A stretch of 64,000 nt of DNA from Candidatus Omnitrophota bacterium (GTDB lineage: Bacteria; Omnitrophota; Omnitrophia; Omnitrophales; Aquincolibacteriaceae): NCBI GenBank assembly GCA_022709525.1, contig JAKLIQ010000001.1:338679-402678 (forward strand), given 5' to 3'. Shown piece after piece: positions 231 to 46,180 of this stretch. The notes beneath the pieces are model-generated. The model was not told the origin of the DNA, did not search any database, and saw only the letters and a list, made by a program, of their open reading frames with translations. Position 1 is the stretch's first letter. The number at the start of each line of letters is the position of its first letter. Both the position numbers and the translations under genes were made by a program.

Positions 231-243
231 CCCATTTTAAGAT

Positions 244-404: not shown

Positions 405-409
405 TAAAA

Positions 410-1261
410 TCAGGCGAGTTCTTCTTCGATCTCGGTATCGCTGGTTGCTGTCGTGCGGTTCTTGCGGTGGGAAAGTGTTTCTACTGCGGAGCCGTCGAGA
501 ATACCGCGCTTGGACGCTTCGATGAATTCCACCATGTGTGCGACTTCCGGGCTTTTGAGGGTTTTTTTGATCTCAAGCACCGCCTGGCTTACGTTCATCC
601 CCGAACGGTAAAGCAGCTTGTAAGCTTCCTTGATCTCGCCCCGCACCTGAGGCCCGATGCCGGCGCGGCGCATTCCCACCACGTTGATCCCCTGAGCGAC
701 GGCCGGCCGGCCGCCGCAGATCACATACGGGGGGATGTCTTTATTGATCGCCGATAAAGCGCTGACCATGGCGAGCGTGCCGATGCGCGTAAATTGATGA
801 AAACCGGTCATGCCGGAAAGAAAAGCCCTGTCCTCAACAACGCAGTGGCCGGTTAAAGAAGCCTGGTTGACCATGATGATGTGATTACCGAGATGACAGT
901 TGTGGGCGATGTGGCAATAAGCCATCAGGAAATTCGAGTCGCCGATCACGGTGGAAGTCCCTTCTTTGGTACCCCGATGGATCGTAACGAATTCGCGGAT
1001 CACGTTCTTGTTGCCGATCTTGGTAAAGGTCGGCTGTCCCTGGTAGGCGAGGTCCTGAGGGGCATGTCCGATGACGGCCTGCATATGGATCTCATTATAA
1101 TTTCCGATATCGGTTCCTTGGGCAAGATAGGCTCCCGCCATGATCTTGTTGTGGGAACCGATCTTGACCCCGTCTTCAATGATCACGTTCGGGCCGATCG
1201 TATTGCCAACCCCGATCCCGACGTTTTTCCCGATAATAGCGCTGGAATGGATTTCAGACAT
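410..1261 (-). CDS. lpxA: Acyl-ACP--UDP-N-acetylglucosamine O-acyltransferase (LpxA)
   Basis: Hexapeptide-repeat left-handed beta-helix sequence throughout (MSEIHSSAIIGKNVGIGVGNTIGPNVIIEDGVKIGSHNKIMAGAYL...). Length (about 284 aa) and the C-terminal helical domain are typical of LpxA. Start set at the MSEIH Met (1261) rather than the ORF-track start at 1405. Confidence 0.8.
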   Translation of the reverse strand: MSEIHSSAIIGKNVGIGVGNTIGPNVIIEDGVKIGSHNKIMAGAYLAQGTDIGNYNEIHMQAVIGHAPQDLAYQGQPTFTKIGNKNVIREFVTIHRGTKEGTSTVIGDSNFLMAYCHIAHNCHLGNHIIMVNQASLTGHCVVEDRAFLSGMTGFHQFTRIGTLAMVSALSAINKDIPPYVICGGRPAVAQGINVVGMRRAGIGPQVRGEIKEAYKLLYRSGMNVSQAVLEIKKTLKSPEVAHMVEFIEASKRGILDGSAVETLSHRKNRTTATSDTEIEEELA

Positions 1262-1394
1262 AGGGCGGATTATATCACAACCCAGACTAGAGACTGAAGA
1301 CCAAAGACTATTTGGCAATTCCCGCATTTTTCTATAGAACAAGTCGCAGAATTTCTCCCGACTTCTTCGTCGCCGTTCAAATTTTCCCAGCGAG

Positions 1395-1605
1395 AAAATT
1401 TTCACTCGCGCGCTCGACTTCGCTCGGCCCGTGAGATAGGTTCTGAGGGCACGTCTCGGAGCCGCTTAAAGCTTGGTTCCTGCTATAGGCAGGATTTAAG
1501 CGGCGAGAGCCGAGGCGTCATGGCGCCGCTGGAGTGCCGAAAGCGCCGTTGACCGAAGAGCTTATCTCACGGGCCACCGTGCCCGCTTCGCTTCGCGAGC
1601 GCGCC
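1395..1605. other. Long imperfect inverted repeat (about 210 bp) with nested sub-hairpins. Candidate structured RNA or regulatory palindrome; strand unknown.
   Basis: gcgcgctcgacttcgctcggcccgtgagata (1398-1431) pairs with tatctcacgggcc...gcttcgcttcgcgagcgcgc (1564-1604). Inner pair gccgcttaaa (1462-1471) with tttaagcggc (1495-1504). Lies in the divergent lpxA / giant-gene intergenic region. Confidence 0.4.
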
Positions 1606-1879
1606 TCTGAAGTCTGGAGAAATTTTTCTTTACTGCCTCTACAAATACCCGGGAATTGTCAGTAAAGACCAGAACAGAAGCAGGAAATGATTCCTGTTTT
1701 GTCGCCTTATGTCGTTTGTCTCACACTCTCAGACGATCCCTATGCTATATATTGCTAAAAATCGCTATATGTCTTAATGGTTAGTTTCATTTTCACTAAG
1801 GATGACAAAAATCAGAAGTTTGAGAAGAAAATACCCCTATGAAAAAATTGGAAAAAATGGACTTTTTTTCGAACCTCTC

Positions 1880-1908
1880 TTGCTTTACCCCCATGCATCA
1901 GTTATATT
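1880..1908 (+). promoter_or_regulatory. Candidate sigma70-type promoter for the giant ORF (TTGCTT-N17-TATATT)
   Basis: ttgctt at 1880-1885, 17-nt spacer, tatatt at 1903-1908, in an AT-rich region about 90 nt upstream of the 1999 ATG. Confidence 0.3.
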
Positions 1909-1998
1909 TTCGGCGACTTTTTTAAGACTAAGGAAAATGGGATAAAATCTCTTTCGAAATCAAGCGAAAAACCGGTCGAAAAAGGACGAAACAGCCGA

Positions 1999-4900
1999 AT
2001 GAATCAACGTAATCCATTCAAGACATATATTGCGGCGCTTACTGTTTTCGCTTTCTTTTTTACAAACCTCGGGATCACTCCGGACGCGTTAGCGGCGGCT
2101 TCGATGCCTACGCCTCGCAACATCTCCGGCAATCAAGCCGAAGTTTTGTTGCCCTACCAAGCCCGGCTTGATTCAAGCATCGGCTTTTCGATTCCCTCCG
2201 AACTTGGCTCCATCGAATATTTCAGGCCCGGAAAAGGCCCGGCGCTTATTCATATCCAGACCGCGCACGGGCATTACCAGGCCCAGAAACAGATCCAGCA
2301 GATCCTCCATCACCTTGATAAAAATTACGGTGTCAAAACCCTTTTCTTGGAAGGAAGCGGGTTTGAGCTGAATCCGGAGCTCATCCGTTTTTTCCCGGAC
2401 GATCATGCGCTTACTATGAAGGCCGCCGACGAGCTCACCAAACGCGCGCTTCTGAAAGGCCCTGAGCTCTTTTTGCTTGATAAGCTGTTCGAAAGCTCAC
2501 AAACAATCAAGCAAAAGACCACAGACCACAGACCGCAGACGACAGCTAAAGATTTTGGGCTCCAGTCTCCAGTCTCCAGTCTCCAGTCTTCCGAAGGCGT
2601 TCGCGCCTTCGGAATTGAGGAGCTTAAATCTTACCGCGAGAACGGCGTCGATTTTGTCAATGTCCTCGAAGCCAAACAAAAAACGCAGAATTTTCTCGCC
2701 GATATGGACATGGGGATCGAGCGTCTTTCCAGCCATTATCTTAATAAAGACCTCCGCGGTTTTCTCAAGCGCCTTGAGGCTTTTGAAAAAAATCAGATCC
2801 CGTTCGAGGATTGGCTTACCTATTTAAAAGGGGAGGCCGCCAAGCGCCTTGAGATGGACCTTTCGCAGGCCCAATATCAGATCGATTGGCCGATGATGGT
2901 CCGAATTTTCAAGATCCGCGAACTTACTTCTAAGCTGGACCGCCAGAAATTTTCAAAGGAGCGTGATGAGTTTTTAAAAACTATCAGGAAATATCTCTCC
3001 AAAAATTGGGACTCGCACCTCGGGACTCGTTCCTCGACGAGAAACCAAAACGAGTCCCTAGTCCCTAGTCCCGAGTCCCTTTATGGAGAAATCGAACGAT
3101 TACTTCGATCGGAGCAGGCAAGCGTCCAGCTTCCGGACCCTGAAACGAGTTTGCTGTTCGAAGACATGGTCCGCCAGCTTCCGGAAGATTTTGATTATGA
3201 AAAGTATCCCAACGTGCGTTATTTCATCGGCATGCTTCTTTTGCAAAGCGAACTAAAGGCGCAGATGCTCATGGAAGAAATGGATCGGTTGGTCGAAAAG
3301 ATCTCCGTCAAATTGGCCGACGCCCCGGAAGAGCAAAAACTTCTTGTCCTCTTAAAAGATTACCGCCTTCTCCAAAAACTTTTCGCGCTGGAACTTTTAC
3401 CGAAGGATTATGAAGCTATTATCGGGACTCGGGACTTGCACCTCGGGACTCGACTGAAACCCTCCAATATATGTGCTCGATTCAATGAAATCGGAAAGTG
3501 GCAAGCCGGAAACGAAAAAACGAGGAACTCAAACGAGCCCCTAGTCCCGAGTGACGAGTCCCGCGTGCGCCGGGTTGAATTTAAACATGTTGAAGATTTG
3601 GATGTATTATTCAATAAGGCGCTCGCATTCTACGCCGGCGTGAAGGAACGCGACCTCAAGATGGAGCAGCGGATCGAAGAGCGGCTCAAGGAAACGGGCG
3701 CTCAAAAAGCCGTGGTCATCACCGGCGGCTTTCATTCCCAGCCCTTTCGCGATCATTTTACGAACAAGGATTTTTCCTACGCTCTCATTTCTCCCAAATT
3801 GACCACGACTGACACAAAAGGCCGCGAAGAATATATCCAGAATACTTTACGTTTTACGCTTAAGTCGACAAAAGAGTCCGTTTATCCGGCAGATCCGGAG
3901 GTGCTCAGGCCTGAAAACCGCTATGGCTTGGATCAGGCCGCCATGCGTGCCGAGATCCGCCAAATCATCTCAGAAGTAGCCGGCCAACCTCAAACCAAAG
4001 ACCTGGAAGCCGCGCGAAAGCTTGTCGATAAAGCTTTTCAACAGGCGGCAAAAGAGGCAGGACTTCTTTACGATCCCCAAGTCGATGAAGCCGAGGCTCG
4101 TGACTTGGCCCAATGGCTTACCGTGACACCTAAAAATATTCCCTTCAGCCAGATCCTTCAGGACGTCCGCGATTGGTTTGCCGGCGCCGAAAGAAAACAA
4201 AAGTTAGAAAGCATTTCTGTTCCTACCCTTGATGTTCTTGCCACAGCCATTCCACAGGATGCCGGAAAAGGATCTGAAGCGGTTTCCCAATCGCGTGCGA
4301 CAGATCTTCAAAAAGAGCCGGAAGGGATGACCGCGCTCGACATCCTCAAAGGGATCGGCTTTGTTTTAGGCGTCAATGTCGCTTATCTAGGCGTCATTCT
4401 GATCATCGCGGCGATCCCCACCGTCATTGTGCTTACTTCAGCGGTGGCGCTTGGGGGTTATTTGGCCTACCAGGCCTTTCTTTGGGCCCAAGAAACATAC
4501 CAGAAGATCAGCGAAGGTATCCGTTCGCTTCCCCAAAATATAGCGGATAAAAAACAATCCCTGTCCCTAATGCTCAAAACGTGGAGTCAAATTTTCAAAC
4601 ATTTTTCCGCCGAGACGTCCGGCAAGTTCAATTACGACGAATTTGCGGAGCAGGTCCATAAAGAAAAGATCCGGATCGGACAACGGATCACGGTCTATCC
4701 CAAAAAAGGCGATCTGATCTCCGGCCGTTTCCATTATCTCAATAACGCGACCGGTTACTTATCCGTCTCGTCCGTTTCGACCGCGTCAGAACAGATTATC
4801 TCCCAGATCCACAAGGATGATATCGCGTTTATTGATGTCCCTCGCGATGTTACTCGCTCGGAAGCGAGAGTAGCCATAATGGTCATTAATGATGCTGTCT

Positions 4901-7900
4901 GGTTTGGGATGGATGCTGCATCGAAAGCGATTTCAATCGACGATTTAAAAGCCGCATTGCGTGAGTCTGATAGAGACTACATATCGGTGCAGCGTGACGG
5001 AGTTTGGCATTCCGTGTCTAAGGTTTTTGTCTACAGACATCTTAGATTTTATGAAAAAGACATTCAAAAAATTTCCAAAATCAAACAAAAAACGTTTGAA
5101 CCGGGAAAAAAGAAATTAATCCCTAAAAAAATTGCAGAAATTTTTCATCAGGCCCTTGCCGAACAATCAGATTTGACCGCTAAATTGATCGCAGCTATGG
5201 GAAGCGCTTATTCGCCCAAAACAGATGTCTTGAAGTCCAGGCGAGTTTCTTTGACAGAAATTTATAAAAATGCGATCGCAAAGCTCGAAAGGGAGCTCGC
5301 AAAGCTTGAGTCATCACTAACCTCTGAAGAGCGCTCTGCGGTTATAGATCGCATTGATGTTCATGTAAAAGTCGCAGGTTATGATGGCAAGCCTCGGGGA
5401 AATCCGCCTCATCGCACAGATTATAAAGTTGCTTTTGCGCTTCGTGACAAAAAAGAACCGCGCAAAACAAGTTCGATGGACGTCATCAATGAATTGTTCG
5501 CAGGTATAGATAATCATCATTATCCGGATCGTGATTTTTTATGGACGTTTTCTCAGGGTGGGCGATTGGGCGATGTTTATCGGCATGTGCGGGGGGAGCT
5601 TGCCTCGCGTCTTGAGTGGTTTGGACTGCTCCCCAACTCACTGTTCGGTTCCGATGAACGTTCTGTATATGTAAACAATGTTATCAATAACATTGAAGTA
5701 GATTTTACGATCCATGGTTTCGCATGGCCTAGCAACTACGCTTTGAATTATGAGGTATTTTTTGCACCTCGTTCCGAGGCGAGGGAATTTTCTGATGTGA
5801 AAACAACGCAAGAGCTCGGCGAATTCATGGCCCCCGTTATCGCGCAAGTCACGGAAAGGATTAAAACCTCCGAACCCTTTCAGGCGTCCAATATTTCAAA
5901 AAACTTGATCGAAGCAGGCCTCTACGACCCTTTGCCCGGCGACAAACAACACGCCTTTGAAGAATTAGGCAAGCAGGACACGCTTGATAAGACCGCTTAT
6001 TTCATGGGTCTCCAGATGTATTGGGCTATCGCCCGCGCTCCTGACCTTGAAAAAGCCAAAGAGCTTGCCGGGACTGTTGATGCCTATGCTCAATCCCGCT
6101 CCGAGGCGAGGAGTGCCGTGAATGAAGGGGCCATGCATGAAGCGGCTCGTAATATGGGTTATCAAGATTTAAAAGAGATCGCTGTTTCTCATGGCGAAAA
6201 TACCATTCCCAATATCGATGAATTTCTGGCCTATTTGAATACCTTTGAGACCGATCAAACGCAGGCGAGGGAAGAATGGTTTGTCAAATGGATTATGGAG
6301 TTCCGCATTATTGAAAAGCTAAAACAGTTCATTGGCGAACATGTCGCCAAGGGAGATGCAAAAGCTTTTGCTAAGGCGGAAGCAGCCTTTCAGGCATTGC
6401 AAAAAATCAATGCTACCGGACAAAGAATCCTGGCAAAGGCCAACCAAACGGCCCAAACGATCAGAACGCTCCAAGATCTGCATGCGATGCTTTCTGAGGC
6501 AAAAACCGCTATCTCAGAAGTTAAAGCCAGTTACCATTTGGAAGAAGAAGCTGGCCGCCAGGAATCCCGCTCGGAGATGAGGGTGAAGCGGACCGAGATG
6601 ATCCGGGACGTTTTATTTCGCGTGGGCATCGCCGTTCCTGTGGTCGCGATCGCCGGCGGTTTTGTCTATCTAGCTATTACTCACACCGCGCCCGTTTTTC
6701 TTTTTCAAGCTTCGTTGACGCTTCTGATCACCATGGGCTTTATCGCATTAGCAACGACATGGCTTAATCATCTTTTTGATCTGGTTCATCAAAAATTCCC
6801 GACTGAAAATCGAAGATTGTCAACGCCCGAAGTTTGGCTTATGGAAACGTTCGGCATCAAACTTAATTTCGGCCGTTTAAGCGGCCTTATAGGCCTGATG
6901 CTCCGGCCTTTAACTCCGTCTGTTTCGGCTCAAGATCAGAAACTTAAAAAACTGCCCGATCAAACCATGGGCGTCTGGCCATCGAATGAGGGAAAACCCC
7001 GTTTTGAAAATCACGATTTTTCCAAAAGAGCGCTACCAATCATTTTGGCAGGAGCGTTTGGCGCGACAGCTGCTTCTGCGCAACAAATCCAAATAACCTA
7101 TCCGCCAATGGACCCGCCTTATGGCGCCAACATGACACTGACTCATACCAATAAAGTCGCGCCGCAGGACGTTTGGGTCACCGCGTTCGCGTATTGGAAA
7201 ACCTCTCTTGTGGAAAGCACCGCCATTGTGACCACTAAGGTATATGATGCGCTTTTCAAGACGAACGATCCTTCTACGACAGTCTATTCAATCAAGCCGG
7301 CAATTTTTTCGAATGCTTCCCCAGTTTTTTTCTACGGCGATAAGTCAGAAACGCCCGTTGTTTCAGGTGGCAGCCTGCCTTCTACGGAAACAAATGTTCT
7401 TCCCAAAAACCCTTCCGCGGCAGACCTTTTAAAACTCCGAACAGACTTTGAACGTGAGCAAAAAGTTAAAGCGAAGGCGCTTGAAAAAAATCGTTCTGAA
7501 CTGAGGGGGAAATTTGCAAAATCGATAATCCTTGGCATTATCGCGTTAGCCGCTGGCTGCGCTACTGCTCCTGCGCCTTATGGTTATCGTCCCGCCGTTC
7601 CTTATGGCTATCCTTATAGTATCACTCCGAGCTGGAAACCGCCGGTTCCTAAAAGGATCAATATTCCAAAAGCGCCGCCCATGCCGCCGGCCGGGATCAA
7701 TATCCGGCCTCGGTCGGAGATCAGGACAACGGTCCGCATTGAAGTGCCGGAAGATGTTCCGCCGGAAAAGACCATCGCGCGATTTGTCCTCGATCAGTTG
7801 GGGAAACCGCTCAACGAGTCCGGAGACCAGGTTACTTTGGTCGATATCCTTCAAGGAAAAGCCATCCTTACCATTTTTACCAACACGGGAGAGTTTATTT

Positions 7901-10900
7901 TCGATCCCCGGGCACAGAGTCTCTCTGCGTTCAATCAGCCCGCCGGCGAGGCCTTGGCGATCGAATTCCAATTCCGTTCCGAGCTAAGAAATTTTCATGT
8001 TCAGGAAGTGAGACTCGATGTAGGCGATCTGAACAAACTTTCTGTCGAGGAAAGAGAAGAAGCTATTGCCAAAAAAATCAAAGATGGTAAGACCAGGATC
8101 TACCTTGGCACATCGATTGAGAACGATCGGTTGCAGTGGGATATGGATCGTGATATTTCCGCCGCGCATGGCCTTGTCAGGGACGCGCGAGTTTTAGCGG
8201 TCTCATTGCAGAAAATAGGAATTCCGGTCCATATGGAATTCCTTAAATTGCCCCTCGAGGTGCGGAACGATGGGACCTGGAGCTTCATCGAATATGACTA
8301 TTATTTTGCCGTTGGGGAAGATCACGCGGAAATATTAAAAAGATTTATTTTGCGTTTGCGGGCGTTGGCCAACGCTTCTACTCTGGGCGATCAAGGATAT
8401 GTAAGACTTCCCGAGGGCATTCTTACGGACGAAATAGAACGGTTTACCGAAGAATACATCGGCCGTTCGGAGACGAGAGCTCTTCCTTCCGTTGAAAAAT
8501 TGATCGGGAAAATAGAAGCGGCCTTGAAAGCCTTCGCGATTCTTTCTAAAACGATCGATAAAGGCGTGATTAATATGTGGGCTAAGGGCTTATATAAGAA
8601 CATGGAGCCTTGGGTGAGAGAGGCGTATGACGATTTGGTTAAATTGATTGGGGAAAAGGCCCAAAAAAGCGATGAACAAGGCGTTCGAGACGCCATCAAT
8701 CAGGTTGAAAAAATCTTTCTCGCCGAAAGGCGGTTCTTGAAGGCAATATTTGATTCAGTGCCAGAGGAGGAAGTATGGCTGTTCACTGAATTTATCGCAT
8801 TGATATGGGACGAACATTCCGACATAAGCAATGCTCTTGCGGACGCTTCGATGAAATTTGAGAAAAACAATTCCGCATTTTCCCTCGAGCTGTCGAACAA
8901 GGCTGATGATACCCGCCCCTCGCTTTCAGACGCGCAGGATCCGGATGATGGCCCGGCCCCGGCCAGCGCCGAACCCTCAACCGCCCCACGTTCCGAAATG
9001 AGGAGTTTACTTGTTGTACAAATGCCTACCACCATGCATCCGGAATTCGCCCTCTCAACTTTTATCATGAACGCTATGAAGGAACATAATTTAAAAAGGC
9101 AGGACGAACGGGGCAATATTTTATTTGAAATTTATGTCAATATGAGGGATGGTCAAAGAATGCTTTACACCGACTTCATTAAAAGCAAGCTTCATAGTTC
9201 CGATGAATTATCTGCGATCTATAATATTCAAAATATTGAATTTGTTTCGACTCCTTCCTTTCAGATCAACACTCCTAAAGATTTGCCGGAAGTGATTATT
9301 GCGCTCGAAAAAGACGCAGAAAAATTGAACAATTTACCGATGGCCGCCTGGAAATCATTGAAGGATGAAGTCTTAAGCCACGCTGAAATTTTCTTAAATA
9401 TCGCTGAAAATTTAGCTGGAACCGATCTTGAGCGTAAAGAGCGGCAAGTAGTTTTTTTACAGATCTTAAAAGGCATTCAAACAATGATCGCATTACCTTT
9501 TCTTGCGGATCAAGAAGACACAAAAGCCAAAAAGATGGCTCAGCGGATTACAAATCTTTGGTTCTTAATTGGCGATGAACTTGAACAAGCGCGTTTGGAC
9601 GGGATAAAGAAGGCCGCCGAAAAACGATACGGCCGGCCAATTGATGTTAAAAAATTAAAAAATGAAATGGGTTCCGCCCATGTTGCATTTGACAAAACCT
9701 CCAACACGCTAGAAGTCGAAGATCTGCCTACTGATATTTGGAGCCCTTATCCGGCGGACCGTATGGTCTCCACTTATCTTAGCCCCGCCATTCTCAGGCA
9801 TCTGCTCGAAGGCTTATCTTTATCCGTGGATGTTGCTGGCGACATGGTACTTCCTTCGAAAGTGGGTTCCATCTCCATTCAGAAATTAGAAGTTCTTATT
9901 AAAGAAGCGATTGATAAAACGGTAGAAGATAAGGCGAAAAAGGATGGAATCGGTGACCCCTCAAAAATTGAGAAGCTCAAAGCTGATCCAGTTGCTAGAT
10001 TTAACGCGCTAGTCAAATTAGAAAATGATGTTCGAAAAAGTCCGGACGAAGCCATTCGAGTCATGCACAGCCAGGGTGTTACAACGATCACCGAAGCTGT
10101 CTTTGTGGAATTTATGGGGGATTTTCTCGCGGCCATGCTGCTGTTAAAGACAGCTCAAAATTGGCAGTTTAAAAAAGAAGGGTTTGAGGCAAATCACGTA
10201 CTTCTTGAAAATATCCAGAAAACCTTGAGTCTTTCTCAGATTGGGCTCGAGGACATCGCTCTTCGGCTTGTTTCCCTTAATATTCCCCTAAATATCATCG
10301 AGCAGGTCATTCAAGGAAAGATGAACAACCTCGAAAAATTTGAGGCTCAAGGAAATGTGATCGTTATGAAGGGCGGGGTCGTAGAGGTTTTAGCTGCAGG
10401 CGGAAAAGCTGCTCGGTGGCGTTCTTCACTAGTGCCATTATTAAAAAATAAAATCATCGAGGATGACGTGGCGGCTAACCGCAATGATCTTCCGCGAGCC
10501 CTTGCGGCTTATTGGTACGGGGATTTTAGTTCCGGAGGCGGCACAGGGATATCACTCGCGATGGATAATCTTACTCATTTAGCGCAACGAGGTTACCCCG
10601 TTCGACTTGCGTATATTTTAAGCCCGCATACATGGCGTACCTTTATGGAAGCAACATACGGGCTTCTGAAAAGATATAACCAGAAAAAAGCAGTTAAAGT
10701 TCCTGTGGAAGCCATCGCCCAAAATACCAGCAGAGCTTGGGTGATCGCAGGAGACGAGATCAAGGAAGAAGATAGAAATGTGCTGGGACATGGGGATGTC
10801 ATGGGAGTGGTTTTTGCCGCCATCCAGGGATTAAAAAATGGGCAGGTTTATGCTATTCCTCGTTCAGCGGACGGACCGACAGCCCAGCTTGGACAGAAGC

Positions 10901-13900
10901 AATTTGAGAGGATTTTGGGATTTATGGCAACCAATACCGTGGCCCATGTTGGTATTGGGAATTGGAGAAATCTTGGTCAGGCAGGGGGAGGATTTGTCAC
11001 CGTCCAAGGACAGCCTGATATTGTTGATACAGCCATTCCAAAAAAAGAAAATGAAAAAAACGGATTTTTAGCTGATCGAGATATTAATCTGTTTTCAACT
11101 TTTATTAATGTTCTGAATTATGCAACCCTTCTTTACGCGATCTCCGACAATATTACAATTGAAGACCAACCGCTTATCTCATGGGATGAGGTGCAGTCTG
11201 TTTCAAGGATGGAAGAAAGTTCAATGACGATTTTGAAACAGCGTTTGGCAAAACTCAGCATTGAACAAGAGCAGGAGATCGTTCGTAATTTTATGAATCT
11301 TTTGCCTTCGGAATATGTTTTAAAGTCGGAAGATGTTCCGAAAGAGGAAGGTTCGAAAGAGTTTGTAAAGAAAGAATTTATACAATGGGAACAAATTAGC
11401 GGAATGTGGCATGGCGCAATTGAAAAAAGAATAAAGGAACGACATGCTCAAGAGAGAGTCCCCGTGCAATGGTCTAAGCCTCTAAGCTATGCAAATGCAG
11501 ATATAAGCTTAAGAGAATTTTCCATTCTTACTCAGCGAGGCGTTCAGGAGTCCGTTCCGTTATTTGCAGAGGTAAAGTCTGTTGTGGATTTATATGCTTT
11601 TCAGCCGCTTGTGCAGAAAGGAATAAAAATTTTAGCGGATAAAGATGTTTTAAGTTCAGAAGTCGGGCAGGATGCCGTGCGGCCTTCCAAGGGTATGGTT
11701 TTAAGAATCAATTCCGAGACTGCCGCGCGACAGCAACTTGCTTCTTTTGCCGCTAAGGGGGCACAGGTCTATTTGGGAAAAAATTTGGTATTTGAAAAAG
11801 GAGCTGAGCTCATTATTACCATCAAGGATTTTCATCGAGGCGTTAGCCTTAAAATAGGCGATAACGCGACATTTTATGGTGACGTTTTATTGCATCTTAA
11901 AGGAGGAGCAGTTGTTGATATTGATAGCGGCGCACAGGTTGGCAGCCCCCTTCTTTCCAGATTAAGATTAACGCTCGAAGATGGCTATTGGCTTCACATT
12001 GAAAGAGAAGCCATGCAAAAAATACTAGAAATGCTGGAACAGAAAGACAAAAAGATTGGAACTGAAAAAGTTGTTGAGCAATACAAAGATTTTGTAACCA
12101 CTAATTTTTTAAGCAAGGCTCGATTTGTTCGACTTCTCGTTGATGCTCTTGCAAATAGTAAAGAGATTAATGAGAATCTGAGAAAAAATGCTGAAGAGGC
12201 AGCTAGGGGAATTGATGTATTTGAAAAAAGGTCGGAACCAAATGCTCGCGCGGAAATGCGGACGCAGCAGGAAGAAGTGCCGGCGGAAGTGGCGCGCCTG
12301 ATCGATGGCGAGATCGTGCCGAAACTGGAGAGGCAGGCGGGCATTATCGAAAGTTTCAAGTCCGGAGAAACCAGTATTGCGAACCTGGCGGTAACCTTTG
12401 ATAAATCGCGTTTACGCGGGATAGCGGGTGAAGTCTATCAAAAGATCTCCAATGCCATTCCGCAGGGGAGCAGCGTTTCAGCCCAAAGTCTTTTTAGTTT
12501 CTTCTATTCGGCCCGTTCAGAAGACGAACATCATCTCGCGGCGCTTTATGCGGCCAATTTAGCCGAAGATAACGACCGTTTGGAGGTCCTTAATTCCGAA
12601 AGGCGGATCCTCTCCCAGGAGCCCATCAATTCAACGATCCTTGCGAGAAAAGAATTCGCCGAAGCTTACGCCAAAAAACTTTTCCTTCTCTTCTCCCACA
12701 ACGCCAAGGGGGAAAGCATTGCGTCAGCCATATACCGCGTTCTTCAGCGCTACGAAATGATAACCCCCGTGAACGTAAGCGCTCGGGACGTTGAGATCGT
12801 CGTTTTAGCTAACCTTCTTCGAAATATGCTTACACCCCAGCAGCTTGAAAAGGTAGCCTGGGACACCCTTATGGAAGAAGCGAGCGCTCTTTTCAACGAG
12901 ATCCAGCGGGTCACTTTCAATTGGAGCGATCTTTCGGCCGAAGCCAAACGCTCGGAAGTCCGGGATACGATTTATGAAGAGGTAAATGACCGGGCGAAAG
13001 AGATCGTAAATATTATTCGTGGGATCGAACAAAATGGGGAACTTAAATCTGTTGAACCCATCCAGCAACACGTGATGGCGCTGCAATCACTTTTTTTAAA
13101 CGGCAACCGGGGTGAGGATATAGCCCGGCAGTTGAGGTCGAAAGCCCCAGCCCTTTCCATCGGCGGTCTTGAACAGATCGCAGGTTATATGACCGCAGCC
13201 TGGCTTTTAGCCAGTTTTTTTGATGAACAGCTTAGAGTATGGCAAGGAAATGAGGACGTAAGACGTGATTGGCATTCCGTTTCCACTCGCGAAGTTCCCG
13301 ATCTTATAAAAGGCATCAACTACGCGTTTGTTCACGGGAAGGTTTTTAAGACTTTTGATTGGATGTCCTCCTTAAATGCAGATAGTTATGACCATGATAA
13401 AGCCATGAAATTTTTCTATAACGCGTTAGTGGAATGGGGGATCGTTGCGCCTTTTTCTTTCCAAAACGCGAAAGGCATTGTCAGGCCTGAATCCATTGTT
13501 TTTTCTCTTTTAAGTTCGGATCATATTTCCACTTTTTCTCAGAAAAAGTTCTTTGAAGAATTAAACGGGCGCTTGGCCAGTCCGTACTTTCCGTTAAAGG
13601 ATTCTGTCAAATTGTGGGTACGCACGCCTCGACCGGAAGCGCCTTACGCTTTTGAAGTGTTGACTCTAAAGACGTCATCTTTTGTTGATTCTGGAACCGA
13701 AATATCGCCGGTGAAATTTTTTGAACAAGCTATCAGTCAGTTGAAGACCAAGCAAATTAATGATATTAAAGACCTCAATGAATTGCTTGCTCGCGTGATG
13801 CGTGTTGGGATTGTCTATGCCGGCCGGTCGGAATTGAGGGAATCAGCAATTTCAAAACAGACCACAGATCAAAAATCACAGACTGTAGCTCAACTTTCAA

Positions 13901-14721
13901 GATTTGGCTCTCAATCCTCGGAATGGGTGGGAGGAGAAGCGGCTTCGATGCTTCCTAAAATCCAGAATTCCCTTTATCCAAGTTATAGTGAAGTTCAAAC
14001 GGACGTTATGGTGATCCGTCAGCTTTATCAGGAAGAATATCTTTATAAAAAAATTGTCAGATATTTTCGCTCCGGCATCATTCCGTTAAAACTTTGGAGC
14101 GCCCTCCGGAAGGCGGGCGCGCTTGGCAGGACCGTGATCGAACGCATCGCCGGTATTTCTTTCGCGGATGCAGCGAAAACCGGATCGGCCGTTCACGAAG
14201 CTACTTTGGCCGATCTGCCAAAGTCGTTCAAAGAATATCATAGGTTCAACCTGGCTCAAGGCGTCTTGCTTTCGATGGATAAGGGAAAGATCGCCGATGG
14301 CTTGATTTTCAGCCGGAAGTTCGCTTTTAGTCGCGGCGCAATCGCGGCAGCTCGTACGGTCTTAGGCGATGTCCCCTTGGCGATGGTGAAGGCCGGTATG
14401 AGCGCGAGGGAAATCCAATTTGTCGAAAATCTTAACCTTCAGTTTAAAAAAGCCGGGCGCAAACAGGCCGAAATTTTTCTCGCTGAGACACCCGAACAAG
14501 CATTGCAGTATCTGCGGGCGAACAAAGCAACCCGTCTGAGGGCGCTTTTTGACGAGAGCGAGGAGAACGATTCTCTGGCTATAGCCCTTAAAAACCAGCT
14601 GCCGGATATCCAATTCGTCAGTAATGCCGAGTTCCAGAGCTTCCTCGGCTACGCCGGCACCGAGATCCAGAAACTGGTCGCCAATGTCCAAGGCCAGTTC
14701 GCCATCCGTAGAGCTGCGTAA
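1999..14721 (+). CDS. Giant secreted/membrane-associated protein of unknown function (4240 aa)
   Basis: One stop-free reading frame of 12,723 nt. N-terminal signal-peptide-like segment (KTYIAALTVFAFFFTNLGITPDALAAA). Hydrophobic helix clusters near aa 800-850 and 1535-1600. Pro/Tyr-rich segment with an internal lipobox-like LAAGC near aa 1840-1890. Recurrent RSExR motif. Coiled-coil-like stretches. No recognisable catalytic motif. In-frame palindromic repeat insertions at 2521-2612, 3008-3079 and 3424-3562. Confidence 0.85.
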   Translation: MNQRNPFKTYIAALTVFAFFFTNLGITPDALAAASMPTPRNISGNQAEVLLPYQARLDSSIGFSIPSELGSIEYFRPGKGPALIHIQTAHGHYQAQKQIQQILHHLDKNYGVKTLFLEGSGFELNPELIRFFPDDHALTMKAADELTKRALLKGPELFLLDKLFESSQTIKQKTTDHRPQTTAKDFGLQSPVSSLQSSEGVRAFGIEELKSYRENGVDFVNVLEAKQKTQNFLADMDMGIERLSSHYLNKDLRGFLKRLEAFEKNQIPFEDWLTYLKGEAAKRLEMDLSQAQYQIDWPMMVRIFKIRELTSKLDRQKFSKERDEFLKTIRKYLSKNWDSHLGTRSSTRNQNESLVPSPESLYGEIERLLRSEQASVQLPDPETSLLFEDMVRQLPEDFDYEKYPNVRYFIGMLLLQSELKAQMLMEEMDRLVEKISVKLADAPEEQKLLVLLKDYRLLQKLFALELLPKDYEAIIGTRDLHLGTRLKPSNICARFNEIGKWQAGNEKTRNSNEPLVPSDESRVRRVEFKHVEDLDVLFNKALAFYAGVKERDLKMEQRIEERLKETGAQKAVVITGGFHSQPFRDHFTNKDFSYALISPKLTTTDTKGREEYIQNTLRFTLKSTKESVYPADPEVLRPENRYGLDQAAMRAEIRQIISEVAGQPQTKDLEAARKLVDKAFQQAAKEAGLLYDPQVDEAEARDLAQWLTVTPKNIPFSQILQDVRDWFAGAERKQKLESISVPTLDVLATAIPQDAGKGSEAVSQSRATDLQKEPEGMTALDILKGIGFVLGVNVAYLGVILIIAAIPTVIVLTSAVALGGYLAYQAFLWAQETYQKISEGIRSLPQNIADKKQSLSLMLKTWSQIFKHFSAETSGKFNYDEFAEQVHKEKIRIGQRITVYPKKGDLISGRFHYLNNATGYLSVSSVSTASEQIISQIHKDDIAFIDVPRDVTRSEARVAIMVINDAVWFGMDAASKAISIDDLKAALRESDRDYISVQRDGVWHSVSKVFVYRHLRFYEKDIQKISKIKQKTFEPGKKKLIPKKIAEIFHQALAEQSDLTAKLIAAMGSAYSPKTDVLKSRRVSLTEIYKNAIAKLERELAKLESSLTSEERSAVIDRIDVHVKVAGYDGKPRGNPPHRTDYKVAFALRDKKEPRKTSSMDVINELFAGIDNHHYPDRDFLWTFSQGGRLGDVYRHVRGELASRLEWFGLLPNSLFGSDERSVYVNNVINNIEVDFTIHGFAWPSNYALNYEVFFAPRSEAREFSDVKTTQELGEFMAPVIAQVTERIKTSEPFQASNISKNLIEAGLYDPLPGDKQHAFEELGKQDTLDKTAYFMGLQMYWAIARAPDLEKAKELAGTVDAYAQSRSEARSAVNEGAMHEAARNMGYQDLKEIAVSHGENTIPNIDEFLAYLNTFETDQTQAREEWFVKWIMEFRIIEKLKQFIGEHVAKGDAKAFAKAEAAFQALQKINATGQRILAKANQTAQTIRTLQDLHAMLSEAKTAISEVKASYHLEEEAGRQESRSEMRVKRTEMIRDVLFRVGIAVPVVAIAGGFVYLAITHTAPVFLFQASLTLLITMGFIALATTWLNHLFDLVHQKFPTENRRLSTPEVWLMETFGIKLNFGRLSGLIGLMLRPLTPSVSAQDQKLKKLPDQTMGVWPSNEGKPRFENHDFSKRALPIILAGAFGATAASAQQIQITYPPMDPPYGANMTLTHTNKVAPQDVWVTAFAYWKTSLVESTAIVTTKVYDALFKTNDPSTTVYSIKPAIFSNASPVFFYGDKSETPVVSGGSLPSTETNVLPKNPSAADLLKLRTDFEREQKVKAKALEKNRSELRGKFAKSIILGIIALAAGCATAPAPYGYRPAVPYGYPYSITPSWKPPVPKRINIPKAPPMPPAGINIRPRSEIRTTVRIEVPEDVPPEKTIARFVLDQLGKPLNESGDQVTLVDILQGKAILTIFTNTGEFIFDPRAQSLSAFNQPAGEALAIEFQFRSELRNFHVQEVRLDVGDLNKLSVEEREEAIAKKIKDGKTRIYLGTSIENDRLQWDMDRDISAAHGLVRDARVLAVSLQKIGIPVHMEFLKLPLEVRNDGTWSFIEYDYYFAVGEDHAEILKRFILRLRALANASTLGDQGYVRLPEGILTDEIERFTEEYIGRSETRALPSVEKLIGKIEAALKAFAILSKTIDKGVINMWAKGLYKNMEPWVREAYDDLVKLIGEKAQKSDEQGVRDAINQVEKIFLAERRFLKAIFDSVPEEEVWLFTEFIALIWDEHSDISNALADASMKFEKNNSAFSLELSNKADDTRPSLSDAQDPDDGPAPASAEPSTAPRSEMRSLLVVQMPTTMHPEFALSTFIMNAMKEHNLKRQDERGNILFEIYVNMRDGQRMLYTDFIKSKLHSSDELSAIYNIQNIEFVSTPSFQINTPKDLPEVIIALEKDAEKLNNLPMAAWKSLKDEVLSHAEIFLNIAENLAGTDLERKERQVVFLQILKGIQTMIALPFLADQEDTKAKKMAQRITNLWFLIGDELEQARLDGIKKAAEKRYGRPIDVKKLKNEMGSAHVAFDKTSNTLEVEDLPTDIWSPYPADRMVSTYLSPAILRHLLEGLSLSVDVAGDMVLPSKVGSISIQKLEVLIKEAIDKTVEDKAKKDGIGDPSKIEKLKADPVARFNALVKLENDVRKSPDEAIRVMHSQGVTTITEAVFVEFMGDFLAAMLLLKTAQNWQFKKEGFEANHVLLENIQKTLSLSQIGLEDIALRLVSLNIPLNIIEQVIQGKMNNLEKFEAQGNVIVMKGGVVEVLAAGGKAARWRSSLVPLLKNKIIEDDVAANRNDLPRALAAYWYGDFSSGGGTGISLAMDNLTHLAQRGYPVRLAYILSPHTWRTFMEATYGLLKRYNQKKAVKVPVEAIAQNTSRAWVIAGDEIKEEDRNVLGHGDVMGVVFAAIQGLKNGQVYAIPRSADGPTAQLGQKQFERILGFMATNTVAHVGIGNWRNLGQAGGGFVTVQGQPDIVDTAIPKKENEKNGFLADRDINLFSTFINVLNYATLLYAISDNITIEDQPLISWDEVQSVSRMEESSMTILKQRLAKLSIEQEQEIVRNFMNLLPSEYVLKSEDVPKEEGSKEFVKKEFIQWEQISGMWHGAIEKRIKERHAQERVPVQWSKPLSYANADISLREFSILTQRGVQESVPLFAEVKSVVDLYAFQPLVQKGIKILADKDVLSSEVGQDAVRPSKGMVLRINSETAARQQLASFAAKGAQVYLGKNLVFEKGAELIITIKDFHRGVSLKIGDNATFYGDVLLHLKGGAVVDIDSGAQVGSPLLSRLRLTLEDGYWLHIEREAMQKILEMLEQKDKKIGTEKVVEQYKDFVTTNFLSKARFVRLLVDALANSKEINENLRKNAEEAARGIDVFEKRSEPNARAEMRTQQEEVPAEVARLIDGEIVPKLERQAGIIESFKSGETSIANLAVTFDKSRLRGIAGEVYQKISNAIPQGSSVSAQSLFSFFYSARSEDEHHLAALYAANLAEDNDRLEVLNSERRILSQEPINSTILARKEFAEAYAKKLFLLFSHNAKGESIASAIYRVLQRYEMITPVNVSARDVEIVVLANLLRNMLTPQQLEKVAWDTLMEEASALFNEIQRVTFNWSDLSAEAKRSEVRDTIYEEVNDRAKEIVNIIRGIEQNGELKSVEPIQQHVMALQSLFLNGNRGEDIARQLRSKAPALSIGGLEQIAGYMTAAWLLASFFDEQLRVWQGNEDVRRDWHSVSTREVPDLIKGINYAFVHGKVFKTFDWMSSLNADSYDHDKAMKFFYNALVEWGIVAPFSFQNAKGIVRPESIVFSLLSSDHISTFSQKKFFEELNGRLASPYFPLKDSVKLWVRTPRPEAPYAFEVLTLKTSSFVDSGTEISPVKFFEQAISQLKTKQINDIKDLNELLARVMRVGIVYAGRSELRESAISKQTTDQKSQTVAQLSRFGSQSSEWVGGEAASMLPKIQNSLYPSYSEVQTDVMVIRQLYQEEYLYKKIVRYFRSGIIPLKLWSALRKAGALGRTVIERIAGISFADAAKTGSAVHEATLADLPKSFKEYHRFNLAQGVLLSMDKGKIADGLIFSRKFAFSRGAIAAARTVLGDVPLAMVKAGMSAREIQFVENLNLQFKKAGRKQAEIFLAETPEQALQYLRANKATRLRALFDESEENDSLAIALKNQLPDIQFVSNAEFQSFLGYAGTEIQKLVANVQGQFAIRRAA
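2521..2612. repeat. Heptamer tandem repeats (CAGACCA-type, then CCAGTCT x4) followed by a perfect 9-bp-arm palindrome, in frame inside the giant ORF
   Basis: ccacagaccacagaccgcagacgacagc ... ccagtctccagtctccagtctccagtct ... ccgaaggcg-ttc-gcgccttcgg. Encodes QTTDHRPQTTAKDFGLQSPVSSLQSSEGVRAFG. Homologous peptides and DNA occur at 13855-13925 and 18975-19058. Confidence 0.7.
3008..3079. repeat. GGGACTCG/CGAGTCCC nested-palindrome element inserted in frame in the giant ORF
   Basis: GGGACTCGcacctcGGGACTCGttcctcgacgagaaaccaaaaCGAGTCCCTAGTCCCTAGTCCCGAGTCCC. Same architecture as the intergenic copy at 23002-23075. Translated as GTRSSTRNQNESLVPSPES with no stop. Confidence 0.8.
3424..3562. repeat. 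GGGACTCG/CGAGTCCC element, larger copy with a 65-nt core, in frame in the giant ORF
   Basis: GGGACTCGGGACTtgcacctcGGGACTCG ... 65 nt ... cgaggaactcaaacgagcccCTAGTCCCGAGtgaCGAGTCCC. Translated as GTRDLHLGTRLKPSN...NSNEPLVPSDESRV. Confidence 0.8.
13855..13925. repeat. CAGACCA-family heptamer repeat copy, in frame near the C-terminal third of the giant ORF
   Basis: cagaccacagatcaaaaatcacagactgtagctcaactttcaagatttggctctcaatcctcg encodes QTTDQKSQTVAQLSRFGSQSS, parallel to the copies at 2521 and 18975. Confidence 0.55.
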
Positions 14722-14732
14722 CGATAAAGCAG

Positions 14733-14850
14733 TAGGTAGTAAGTAGTAGATGGTAGGTGGCAGACGGTGTGGCAAAGTCCGTTTTGCGCTTTGTTCACCA
14801 CATACTGCTTACCACATACTACCTACCAGTTTTTACTTCTCTCTTTCGAC
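14733..14850 (+). terminator. Long imperfect hairpin made of GTAG/CTAC repeats followed by a T-rich tract. Candidate terminator of the giant gene.
   Basis: gtaggtagtaagtagtagatggtaggtgg (14733-14760) is complementary to ccacatactgcttaccacatactacctac (14798-14827). Perfect 10-bp outer stem gtaggtagta/tactacctac. Downstream agtttttacttctctctttcg. Confidence 0.4.
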
Positions 14851-14908
14851 TTTCCTAGCTAGAATACCCCCAAATCTTCTAACCCTTTTCCAACTTGGGA
14901 CTTAGAGA

Positions 14909-16126
14909 ATGTTTCCATCCGTCAGCGAACAGCTAGGGGTCTTTAAGGAGAATCTGGTCGAGCTCATTTCGGAAAAAGAGCTTGTCACGAAACTCGAAGC
15001 TTCCTGTAAGAAAAATAAACCCCTTCGCATCAAATACGGGGCCGATCCCTCGGCGCCGGATCTCCATCTCGGGCATACCGTGCCGCTCCGTAAGCTTCGT
15101 CAATTGCAGGACCTCGGGCATACGGTCGTTTTCATCATTGGTGATTTTACGGCGCGGATCGGCGATCCCTCAGGGAAATCCGAAACCCGGCCCATGCTTA
15201 CCGAAGAACAGGTCCAAGCGAACGCTAAAACCTACCAGGAACAGGTATTCCGCATCCTCGATAAGAAAAAAACCGAAGTTCGCTATAATTCCGAATGGCT
15301 CGGCGCGATGCGGCCGGAGGATTTCTTAAAGCTTACCGCCCAATACACAGTGGCCCGGATCCTCGAGCGGGATGATTTCAGCAAACGTTACAAGGCCGGT
15401 CATCCGATAGCGCTCGTCGAATTTCTTTACCCGCTGCTTCAAGGTCATGATTCCGTGGAGATCGAATCAGATGTCGAGCTCGGGGGGACGGACCAGATGT
15501 TCAACCTTTTGGTGGGGCGCGAACTCCAAAAAGCGGATGGTCAGGAGTCGCAGGTTGTTATGACGCTTCCTTTGATCGAAGGGCTGGATGGCGTTCAAAA
15601 AATGTCCAAAAGCCTCGGCAATCATATCAGCCTGAAAGATACGCCGCGCGAAATGTTCGGCAAGGTCATGTCGATCCCGGATATCATGATGGAGCGCTAT
15701 TACCGCTATACGGCGGCGCTTCCGGTTAAAGAAGTCGAGTCGATCCTTGCGGGTCTGAAAAAAGGCGAGTTTCATCCGCGGGAAATGAAAGCCAAACTTG
15801 CCGAGCGTATCGTCTCGCTTTTCCATTCCGAAAAAGAGGGAAAAGAAGCGCGCGAAGAATTCGACGAGATCTTCAAGAACAAAGGCCTGCCGGATGAAGT
15901 CCCTACCGTCAAGATCAAGGAAAAGACGATCGATATCGTGAGTCTGCTTGTCGCCGCGCAGCTTGTGACAAGCAAATCCGAAGCCCGGCGCCTCATGGAA
16001 CAGGGCGGTGTCAAGATCGGCCACGAGAAGATCACGGACCCGAAATCGGTCATTACGATCGGCGATCCTTTCGTCCTGCAATGCGGTAAGCGCAAGTTTG
16101 CCCGCATTGAAAGTTATAGTGCTTAA
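14909..16126 (+). CDS. tyrS: Tyrosine--tRNA ligase
   Basis: Class I HIGH motif ([11 protein letters not shown]) and KMSKS motif (KMSKSLGN). 405 aa with a C-terminal S4-like region. Confidence 0.9.
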
Positions 16127-16163
16127 TTCATGATATTTACGCTAAGCGCCCTTTGAGCGGTCC

Positions 16164-17147
16164 ATGAGCGATCATCATTCCGAAGTTCTAATCGATTTTC
16201 AAAATGTTTCCAAAAGGTATGGCGCGTTCCGGGCTCTTCGCGACGTTTCTTTTCAGGTCCGGGAAGGGGAGATCGTCGGATTTCTGGGCCCCAACGGCGC
16301 CGGCAAAACGACCGCTATGCGGATCCTTTCGGGATTTTTTCCTCCCACAAGCGGTCACGTCTCGATCCGAGGCGTCGATATGTCCAAGCATCCTCACAAA
16401 GCCAAGCAAGCCATTGGGTATCTTCCGGAGACGGTGAGTCTTTATCCGGACATGCGCGTGATCGAATATCTTCGATTTGTCGCAAAAGTCAAAGGCGTGC
16501 CGCCTCATGAACGATGGGGGCATATCAGGGCCAAGATGTCTTTTTGCGGGCTTCTGGAGGTCAGCCACCGCTTGATCGGAAAGCTTTCAAAAGGGTACCG
16601 CCAGCGCGTGGGGCTTGCCCAGGCGCTCATGGGCGATCCTTCCGTGTTGATCCTCGATGAGCCCACCACGGGGCTCGACCCGACCCAGATCAAAGAGATC
16701 CGCGAACTGATCCGCGCCCTGGGTCAAAACCGCGCCGTGATCCTCTCAACGCATATCCTTCCCGAAGCTTCCATGTTATGTAATCGCGTTTTAATGATCA
16801 ACCAAGGGGAGATCCTGGCGAGCGGTACGGTCCAGGAGCTTGCTTCTTGTTTGAAGAACCGGGAAGTCATTCATATCCGGATCAAGCACCGGGAAGACCG
16901 GCAACACGCGGTGGAGGCGTTGGGATCGATCCAAGGGGTCAGAGGATTGAGATCGGGAGAAGAAGCCAACGGAGAAACCTTCTTCGCTTTTGAATCCTTG
17001 CCTGACGAAGACCTGCGCCCCAAGATCACGAAACTTTTCGTGGAGCAGGGTATTTCGCTCGCCGAGATCCGGCGCGAACCTATGAACCTGGAAGAAGTTT
17101 TTCTAGGGCTTCTTGAGGAAGGGAAGCTCGGGAGGCGATTCTCGTGA
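16164..17147 (+). CDS. ABC transporter ATP-binding protein (GldA-like, ABC-2 type)
   Basis: Walker A GPNGAGKTT, signature LSKGYRQRVGLAQAL, Walker B LILDEPTTGLD. Followed by a translationally coupled permease. Confidence 0.85.
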   Translation: MSDHHSEVLIDFQNVSKRYGAFRALRDVSFQVREGEIVGFLGPNGAGKTTAMRILSGFFPPTSGHVSIRGVDMSKHPHKAKQAIGYLPETVSLYPDMRVIEYLRFVAKVKGVPPHERWGHIRAKMSFCGLLEVSHRLIGKLSKGYRQRVGLAQALMGDPSVLILDEPTTGLDPTQIKEIRELIRALGQNRAVILSTHILPEASMLCNRVLMINQGEILASGTVQELASCLKNREVIHIRIKHREDRQHAVEALGSIQGVRGLRSGEEANGETFFAFESLPDEDLRPKITKLFVEQGISLAEIRREPMNLEEVFLGLLEEGKLGRRFS

Positions 17148-22996: not shown

Positions 22997-23001
22997 CAAA
23001 A

Positions 23002-23082: not shown

Positions 23083-23088
23083 AAAATT

Positions 23089-44551: not shown

Positions 44552-44556
44552 ACCGC

Positions 44557-44620: not shown

Positions 44621-44628
44621 GGAGTTTT

Positions 44629-46170: not shown

Positions 46171-46180
46171 AACCAAAAAA

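Follow-up and report, generated by a model that had tools for sequence, protein, structure and literature searches.

A motif-divided giant protein of Candidatus Omnitrophota as a possible polyprotein-like precursor

Giant open reading frames (ORFs) are a hallmark of Omnitrophota, and the literature leaves open whether their products persist as one chain or are cut into pieces. This question is raised by a gene in a 64,000-nucleotide stretch of a Candidatus Omnitrophota genome (GenBank assembly GCA_022709525.1, contig JAKLIQ010000001.1, forward-strand positions 338,679 to 402,678), hereafter the window. The gene (1999..14721, + strand) has an ATG start and a single stop-free frame (frame 1) that encodes a protein of 4240 amino acids (aa), the query, and closes with a stop codon at 14719-14721. 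A conserved N-terminal domain (N-domain) is followed in the query by a long body divided by the pentapeptide R-S-E-x-R, and the protein is read here as a polyprotein-like precursor that would be processed proteolytically at this motif, a reading with, in our judgement, an even chance of being correct. The initial annotation of the gene, made from its letters alone, overlooked the most informative feature, namely R-S-E-x-R together with the beads-on-a-string layout, as well as the positional orthology of genes with unrelated bodies.

The same annotation had taken the frame for one real coding sequence, and this is borne out by homologues with the same architecture on many independent contigs (JGI, ENA, NCBI and Logan; 238 genome loci). 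An assembly artefact or a decaying pseudogene, to which the lower GC content and the atypical codon use of the gene relative to its flanks might point, is effectively refuted by these contigs, by the 4240 stop-free codons and by N-domain residues that are invariant across a 29-sequence alignment. The annotated ATG is taken as the correct start because the query N-terminus, MNQRNPFKTY..., aligns with those of homologues, e.g., MNQRKPFKTF in P0004 (homologues are numbered P and genome loci L). The N-terminus also looks like a signal peptide, as previously proposed: by eye and hydropathy, aa 1-34 (1999..2100, + strand; MNQRNPFKTYIAALTVFAFFFTNLGITPDALAAA) comprise a basic n-region, a hydrophobic core and ALAAA, features that are kept across the family, and a helix is modelled at residues 6-24.

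The junction motif and the modules of the body

R-S-E-[LVAMIT]-R occurs 11 times in the query, accompanied by one RAEIR and one RAEMR, against 0.07 copies expected in 4240 aa, and is almost wholly missing from the remainder of the window. Along the + strand, the signal peptide and N-domain (aa 1-649) are followed by RAEIR (3946..3960, aa 650-654), a variant at the end of the N-domain that is uncertain as a junction, and then by a module (aa 655-952) with a transmembrane (TM) hairpin at 4354..4512 (aa 786-838). Three copies of RSEAR (4855..4869, aa 953; 5770..5784, aa 1258; 6097..6111, aa 1367) precede, in turn, the modules at aa 958-1257, 1263-1366 and 1372-1523. RSEMR (6568..6582, aa 1524) is directly followed by the second TM hairpin (6604..6768, aa 1536-1590), with which the module at aa 1529-1831 opens, and RSELR (7492..7506, aa 1832) is directly followed by the lipoprotein-type signal GKFAKSIILGIIALAAGC of a small module (7507..7710, aa 1837-1904) that has a Pro/Tyr-rich tail and is homologous to a module of P0010. 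RSEIR (7711..7725, aa 1905), RSELR (7975..7989, aa 1993) and RSETR (8464..8478, aa 2156) introduce the modules at aa 1910-1992, 1998-2155 and 2161-2330, respectively; RSEMR (8989..9003, aa 2331) introduces the largest module, of 1081 aa (9004..12246, aa 2336-3416). The variant junction motif RAEMR (12247..12261, aa 3417) and RSEVR (12949..12963, aa 3651) lead to modules at aa 3422-3650 and 3656-3942, and the last junction motif, RSELR (13825..13839, aa 3943), leads to a C-terminal module (13840..14718, aa 3948-4240) that has an alpha/beta core and ends in ...FAIRRAA.

Both hairpins, which were placed by hydropathy only, agree with the TM clusters that had been noted near aa 800-850 and 1535-1600. 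A third hydrophobic stretch (aa 1839-1857) bears the lipobox LAAGC, and by pattern match only, a basic n-region, a hydrophobic core and a lipobox L-[AS]-[GA]-C are all present in aa 1837-1904; the use of this internal lipoprotein signal would depend on cleavage. The body is otherwise poor in recognisable relatives: neither aa 655-2335 nor aa 2336-3416 has a significant match in a database of 5.8 billion proteins, and a stretch at aa ~3226-3434 is weakly similar to stretches of the family members P0004, P0012 and P0016. At least 12 homologues have, at their very C-terminus, the alpha/beta module of ~250 aa that comes after the last motif; its model (pLDDT 70) matches only generic Rossmann/HAD-like structures.

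The strictness of the motif becomes apparent among the homologues, which in 414 kaa (thousand amino acids) hold 702 copies of RSExR versus 9 of KSExR, 4 of RSExK and 4 of RSDxR. At more than 700 sites, position x is L, V, A, M, I or T, and the flanks are unconserved save for small residues before the motif and A, S, T or E after it. Giant bodies from 80 genome loci carry 2.53 copies per 1000 aa and other ORFs 0.082; the residual copies in the latter mostly represent the 3' ends of further giant genes in tandem. Among gapped 5-mers, RSExR ranks first in 104 of the 168 long family members; in some lineages RAExR, RTExR or RPExR takes over, and the first motif usually lies within about 100 aa of the N-domain end. 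In the pairs P0062/63, P0038/50 and P0077/81 the four fixed residues are 90-100% conserved, the flanking 60 residues being 36-66% identical; conservation above the flanks in this way indicates purifying selection on the motif. Three members with N-domains 24-28% identical to that of the query (P0071, P0076 and P0082; L006) lack R-x-E-x-R and repeat (A/S)(A/S)SLGxE instead. The latter, which in P0071 first appears immediately behind the N-domain, is possibly an alternative junction motif. A literature search on the motif strings, with thin coverage of subscription journals, returned no relevant paper.

What lies between the motifs corresponds to whole proteins. In eight orthologues, 13 Pfam units contain no motif, against 13.6 expected under random placement, and units held whole within one segment include GDH N+C, PGM I-III, GlgA N+C and a PAS-histidine kinase-receiver. 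In P0024 the triose-phosphate isomerase (TIM) module is full-length, with junctions 7 residues before and 4 residues after its Pfam envelope (...PRAA-RSEAR-SQGERELFVGGNWKM ... GGASLKSDKFVSIVRSVRAA-RSEAR-M...). The median inter-motif segment is 225 aa, TM-like hydrophobic stretches are enriched within the first 10 residues after the motif, and lipobox signals follow the motif not only in the query (RSELR-GKFAKSIILGIIALAAGC) but also in P0003, P0010, P0011 and P0015. Orthologues therefore carry complete independent proteins within one ORF, and in the query the segment sizes, TM hairpins and lipoprotein signal point to the same arrangement.

These units bear directly on the view that the product is an uncleaved mega-scaffold, i.e., one membrane-anchored chain in which R-S-E-x-R serves structurally, as a cap or hinge, or provides a partner with a docking site. 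Such a scaffold would accord with the literature, in which each Omnitrophota giant is usually treated as one chain, anchored in the membrane and rich in TM helices; in-chain TM hairpins would let a single polypeptide weave through the membrane, the motif is missing in some family members, and the recurrence of N- and C-terminal ends together in a subset of homologues suggests that the whole chain is a unit. A passive linker, however, would not require so strict a pentapeptide, closed to Lys and Asp and conserved above its flanks, and complete oligomeric enzymes (TIM, GDH) and post-motif lipoprotein signals are hard to square with permanent fusion, for which reasons the scaffold is considered rather unlikely.

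The N-terminal domain and processing at the motif

The conserved N-domain (2179..3861, + strand, aa ~61-621) was modelled with AlphaFold2 on an alignment of 29 N-domain sequences (pLDDT 79, pTM 0.74) as an alpha/beta core, with strands at residues 70-88, 114-117, 202-205, 570-576 and 593-599, that is split by a helical insertion of ~350 aa. Its fold resembles that of TIKI, Ere, ChaN, TraB and RRSP proteins, the matches being 2rad (erythromycin-esterase-like, 10.2), 6xcq (EreC, 9.8), 2qgm (erythromycin-esterase-like, 9.7), 2g5g (ChaN, 9.3), 5t09 (HopBA1, 9.3), 8bqs_DQ (TraB-family protein, 8.7) and 5w6l (RRSP, the Ras/Rap1-specific endopeptidase, 8.3). The active site of this superfamily consists of two GxxH-type motifs with a conserved Glu and Arg. 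In the N-domain, on the + strand, IHIQTAHGHY (2248..2277, aa 84-93) has an invariant His90 and a nearly invariant Gln87; FLEGS (2344..2358) has an invariant Glu118-Gly119; FYAGVKERD (3628..3654) has invariant Phe544, Tyr545 and Arg551; and VVITGGFHSQ (3712..3741, aa 572-581), a GxxH-type motif, has an invariant Gly576-Gly577-Phe578-His579. H90, E118, R551 and GGFH579 are invariant in all 29 sequences at identities down to 25%, and two of these segments are the H-rich motifs to which the initial annotation had already drawn attention. Its statement that the protein has no recognisable domain or enzymatic signature is nevertheless not upheld for the N-terminal 600 aa, which form a conserved hydrolase-like domain that shares the alpha/beta core fold of the superfamily in the model and may have hydrolase (protease or esterase) activity.

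The superfamily is represented in Pfam by PF04187, PF01963 and PF05139, none of which has an above-threshold match among the 29 N-domains. PF04187 ("Tiki superfamily, ChaN") is the Pfam family touched by most members, namely five of the 29, all below threshold (best E = 4e-4), and it is not among the query's own matches. Apart from the common core, the query differs from known members in the helical insertion, in having QTAH rather than GxxH as the first motif, and in that N-domains of its family are always fused to a body of several thousand residues, which is unreported for known members.

Cysteine is nearly absent from the query, with two residues in 4240 aa: one at aa 492 near a repeat arm (described below) and Cys1854 in the lipobox. 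Across the family the median is 0.05% versus 1.14% in neighbouring genes, and the depletion extends to members that contain normally cytoplasmic enzymes. It suggests a chain that crosses the cytoplasmic membrane or is located beyond it; together with the signal peptide and TM hairpins, such extreme depletion, typical of exported chains, supports the secreted or membrane character that had been assigned to the protein. The C-terminal residue is Ala in 149 of 200 family proteins, 127 of which end in -AA or -SA; the query ends in RAA (14710-14718). Ala-rich C-terminal ends are reminiscent of ssrA-type determinants recognised by ClpXP or Tsp.

In the proposed precursor, a Sec-type signal peptide would lead an N-domain of ~560 aa with a hydrolase fold, about 12 unrelated protein-sized modules (68-1081 aa), including two with TM hairpins and one that is lipoprotein-like, would follow, and the C-terminal alpha/beta module would end the chain. 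R-[S/A]-E-[hydrophobic]-R at every module boundary would be the site-specific signal for proteolytic cutting of the chain into its several products, and the locus would act as a slot whose N- and C-terminal ends stay constant as modules come and go between them. Processing at the motif is favoured because complete proteins with their own targeting signals coincide with a strict motif and with the fold class of the N-domain, within which TIKI and RRSP are site-specific endopeptidases. On fold and conservation, the N-domain is a candidate in-cis protease acting on the motif, an assignment that is made tentatively. It is possible, though doubtful, that the arrangement forms a phylum-wide system in which a TIKI/RRSP-like endopeptidase autoprocesses a Cys-free exported chain at R-[SAPT]-E-x-R and releases up to about 25 proteins; that the released set would comprise central-metabolism enzymes, membrane proteins and lipoproteins, with rapid module turnover at a conserved slot, is put forward with similar reserve.

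The strict motif and the conserved N-domain make the cleavage of giant proteins experimentally addressable, and the motif provides an objective criterion for where to divide such proteins before their structures are predicted and their parts annotated. Processing, if real, would amount to a large-scale cellular polyprotein strategy in bacteria and would explain why housekeeping-type enzymes are encoded inside giant genes.

Several points weigh against processing, or against the N-domain as its agent. Cleavage at the motif is deduced rather than directly evidenced, and the fold does not imply a protease, since the superfamily also holds esterases (Ere) and the haem-binding ChaN. The support for the fold is less than unanimous: the N-domain profile has no match among PDB sequences, Foldseek of the model against PDB returns helical noise only, and the Pfam matches are sub-threshold. 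The first GxxH-type motif is QTAH in the query. The N-domain appears to be exported, yet many modules have a signal, TM or lipobox segment placed directly after the motif; this would accord with release that precedes export or is independent of it, which is awkward for an in-cis protease. Paralogues of one genome whose N-domains are ~50% and ~30% identical to that of the query use the same motif; with divergent N-domains and one motif, a shared trans-acting factor fits equally well. RAEIR at aa 650 falls within a predicted helix that close homologues retain, and it may not be a junction; some members with an N-domain have few or no motifs (P0046, P0140, P0143, P0183 and P0197). Finally, codon choice at the motif hints at a constraint on nucleotides or at common descent of the junctions: among 416 motif sites (L007-L086), the first Arg is CGN in 98% (CGY in 84%) and Ser is TCN in 96%, versus AGR and AGY shares of ~26-33% of the Arg and Ser codons in the genes checked.

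This bias lends some plausibility to a nucleic-acid element, in which the 15-nt sequence C-CGY-TCS-GAR-NNG-MGR-R would be a cassette recombination joint or a site of mRNA processing and the peptide motif its by-product. The codon at x is mostly NNG, the base after the motif is a purine in 59 of 60 sites, and the unrelated bodies of positional orthologues imply frequent exchange of modules, as a recombination joint would allow. Synonymous variation is nevertheless seen at all degenerate positions, CGN and AGR occur in background proportions at the last Arg, and position 2 varies as an amino acid (S, A, T or P) by lineage with Arg, Glu and Arg fixed. Nucleotides outside the 15 nt are unconserved, Rfam gives no match, and such an element is accordingly judged very unlikely. 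Alternatively, the CGN/TCN bias may arise because an AGGAG Shine-Dalgarno-like sequence is avoided ahead of the frequent ATG or GTG at x. Three other interpretations of the motif were rejected: a translated Shine-Dalgarno sequence with a start codon, as the DNA reads CGN TCN GAR NNN MGR rather than AGGAG and the codon at x is ATG, GTG or TTG in only about 30%; a 2A-like ribosome-skipping signal, as the upstream context is unconserved; and a twin-arginine (Tat) signal, as the arginines are not adjacent and have Glu between them.

The family, its conserved slot and related systems

Orthologous giant ORFs are found in related genomes. A search with the whole protein yielded 92 proteins of 2343-7406 aa, all named ones from Candidatus Omnitrophota, in which only aa 1-650 are common to all. 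A family profile built from the 29 N-domains recovered 9555 clusters at 50% identity (E <= 1e-3), 6066 of them with E <= 1e-30; in each of the top 150 the domain stands at the N-terminus, in proteins of up to 7823 aa. The scan of one genome per species that gave the 238 loci again returned only Omnitrophota among named records, and a genome often holds two or three paralogues. The family is thus very large and has no Pfam model, and no description of its motif or domain was found in the literature searched.

Closer relatives occupy the same slot, in the order fabF, lpxA, giant gene, tyrS, ABC, ABC-2, GldG-like, DUF4340, yggS, proC, yggT, PNP and ileS; the gene immediately upstream is lpxA in about 20 loci, tyrS lies downstream in L021, L024 and L025, and the distant members P0075 and P0082 have other genomic contexts. 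Genes in this slot encode 2340, 2926, 3346, 4240 (query) and 5307 aa and share almost nothing with the query beyond the N-domain and, in some, the C-terminal module; a few body modules are weakly similar within the family. The orthologue bodies carry PGM, hexokinase, glycosyltransferases, HEAT and histidine kinases. Directly before some giant genes lies the 3' end of an ORF that is motif-bearing, (nearly) Cys-free and ends in -[AS]A (L013 2-3010, L058 2-9619, L030 2-9559, L046 50-2935 and L062 2-943), which indicates that genes of this family occur in tandem arrays.

Omnitrophota giant proteins have been described in two preprints, one of which distinguishes Archaeovorin and Dockerin types (West-Roberts et al. 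2023, bioRxiv 10.1101/2023.11.21.568195), while the other includes "multi-enzyme metabolic clusters" (Nielsen & Lui 2026, bioRxiv 10.64898/2026.06.07.730766). For the giants of at least 10 kaa, post-translational cleavage has been suggested and C39 or S8 peptidase domains have been invoked; one paper states that the cleavage points are unknown. Neither R-S-E-x-R nor a TIKI-like N-domain is mentioned in either preprint, with the subscription literature little covered, and cysteine content is unmentioned in West-Roberts et al. 2023. Giants of at least 10 kaa and the query family share the phylum, very long ORFs and TM helices or signal peptides, and the enzyme families listed above for the query's orthologues (PGM, hexokinase, glycosyltransferases, HEAT and histidine kinases) recur in those giants. 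The query family is shorter (2.3-7.8 kaa; query 4240 aa) than that length limit, and Pfam finds in the query neither the Dockerin or TSP3 repeats nor the C39 or S8 peptidases of those giants. Their genes are flanked by a type II secretion system or type IV pilus upstream and by pilZ or sugar import downstream, in contrast to lpxA, tyrS, ABC-2/GldG-like and DUF4340 beside the query.

Context and domain content also bear on the roles put forward in the initial annotation, i.e., a giant surface adhesin, an S-layer or envelope organiser, or an effector of cell-cell interaction that acts as one protein. The signal peptide, TM segments and Cys depletion fit an envelope or extracellular location, and other Omnitrophota giants have been tied to host attachment in published work. 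No Ig-like, cadherin, haemagglutinin or SLH-type repeats are found in the query by Pfam or self-BLAST, however, and Pfam and NCBIfam likewise reveal no adhesin-type domains; self-BLAST of the giant protein detects no internal repeats of any kind. In place of adhesin repeats, the orthologues bear glycosyltransferases, kinases and enzymes of central metabolism, and the lpxA/tyrS/ABC context is unlike the secretion and pilus context of the >10-kaa giants, so that roles of this type appear highly improbable.

Closer parallels in working principle are offered by three kinds of processed proteins. MARTX toxins of Vibrio have fixed N- and C-terminal ends, mosaic modules that vary between strains, and in-cis protease release at short inter-module sites, and their effector RRSP has, by fold match, the same fold as the query N-domain. 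The query is without their glycine-rich A/B/C repeats and cysteine protease domain (no Pfam match, two Cys) and without an adjacent type I secretion system; MARTX modules are toxins, whereas those of the query family include housekeeping-type enzymes. Gingipain polyproteins (RgpA/Kgp/HagA of Porphyromonas) and Mycoplasma adhesins (S/T-X-F|X-D/E sites) are envelope precursors of bacteria that bear a signal peptide and, close to the N-terminus, a protease domain; they are cut at short sites, either Arg/Lys or defined by a motif, to give several surface products. Their products are related adhesin domains of one complex, in contrast to the unrelated whole proteins of the query, whose motif is a strict pentapeptide and whose candidate protease differs from theirs in fold. 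Viral polyproteins (picornavirus 3C, flavivirus NS3) hold complete proteins in one ORF with an embedded protease, short junction motifs and membrane modules, as is proposed for the query, but the query is a chromosomal gene in a housekeeping context with hypervariable module content and has no viral family match in PHROGs. By analogy, MARTX, gingipain and viral polyproteins may be regarded as the closest counterparts in working principle, although the query lacks the domains by which each is defined.

Flanking regions and in-frame repeat insertions

The neighbours recognised in the initial annotation are those found here, all in conserved synteny: an LpxA-type acyltransferase upstream (410-1405, - strand), TyrS downstream (14909-16126, + strand) and then, in the order ABC ATPase, ABC-2 permease, GldG-like ABC_transp_aux and DUF4340, a set at 16164-20327 (+ strand). 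The ABC-2/GldG-like/DUF4340 set stands near the giant gene in the query and close orthologues and also upstream of that of the distant P0075 (L005 1-2345), and a functional tie between the set and the giant gene is possible. No Pfam protease family is matched in the giant protein or in the seven flanking ORFs scanned, and the whole 4240-aa protein has no significant match in Pfam, NCBIfam, PHROGs or PDB sequences; the sole library match of the whole protein, HEPN_DZIP3 (E = 0.04), was dismissed as spurious. Promoter and terminator scans at the ends of the giant gene gave nothing above chance, and an Rfam scan of window positions 1-16500 gave no match, including for a 26-nt inverted repeat (1426-1451 / 1550-1575, 81% complementary) within the 593 nt of intergenic DNA that precede the gene. 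The GC content of the gene body is 0.41-0.48 versus 0.52-0.56 in the flanks, and the AGR share of Arg codons is about twice as high in the gene as in flanking housekeeping genes (30% versus 13%), which together fit foreign or fast-evolving module content.

The in-frame mobile-repeat insertions that had been reported in the gene are present in the N-domain, where four query-specific insertions (aa 164-196, 337-357, 478-482 and 500-518) match repeat families that recur elsewhere in the window and sit in low-confidence loops of the model. The first (2488..2586, + strand, aa 164-196) belongs to the AGACCACAGAC / GTCTCCAGTCT family, whose copy there spans 2512-2590 (in frame at aa ~171-196) and other copies of which are found at 13855-13883, just after the last junction motif in the C-terminal module, and at 18975-19017; a peptide akin to this insertion, QTADHSLKTKDF...APVSSLKSS, occupies the same loop in the distant homologue P0073. 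The second (3001..3084, + strand, aa ~335-362) is a palindromic GGGACTCG...CGAGTCCC element, of which the copy at 2995-3090 has a folding z of -4.8. Arms of the GGGACTCG type (3422..3565, + strand, aa 478-482 and 500-518) bracket a native stretch and are common to the orthologue P0001. Further GGGACTCG...CGAGTCCC copies, apparently between long ORFs, lie at 236-304, 380-405, 19026-19060, 22998-23086, 44550-44622 and 46169-46270. The two in-frame N-domain copies of this element translate as ...HLGTR...NESLVPS..., and LGTR...NES[RL]VP peptides in the orthologues P0001 and P0059 indicate that the family spreads through coding sequence across genomes.

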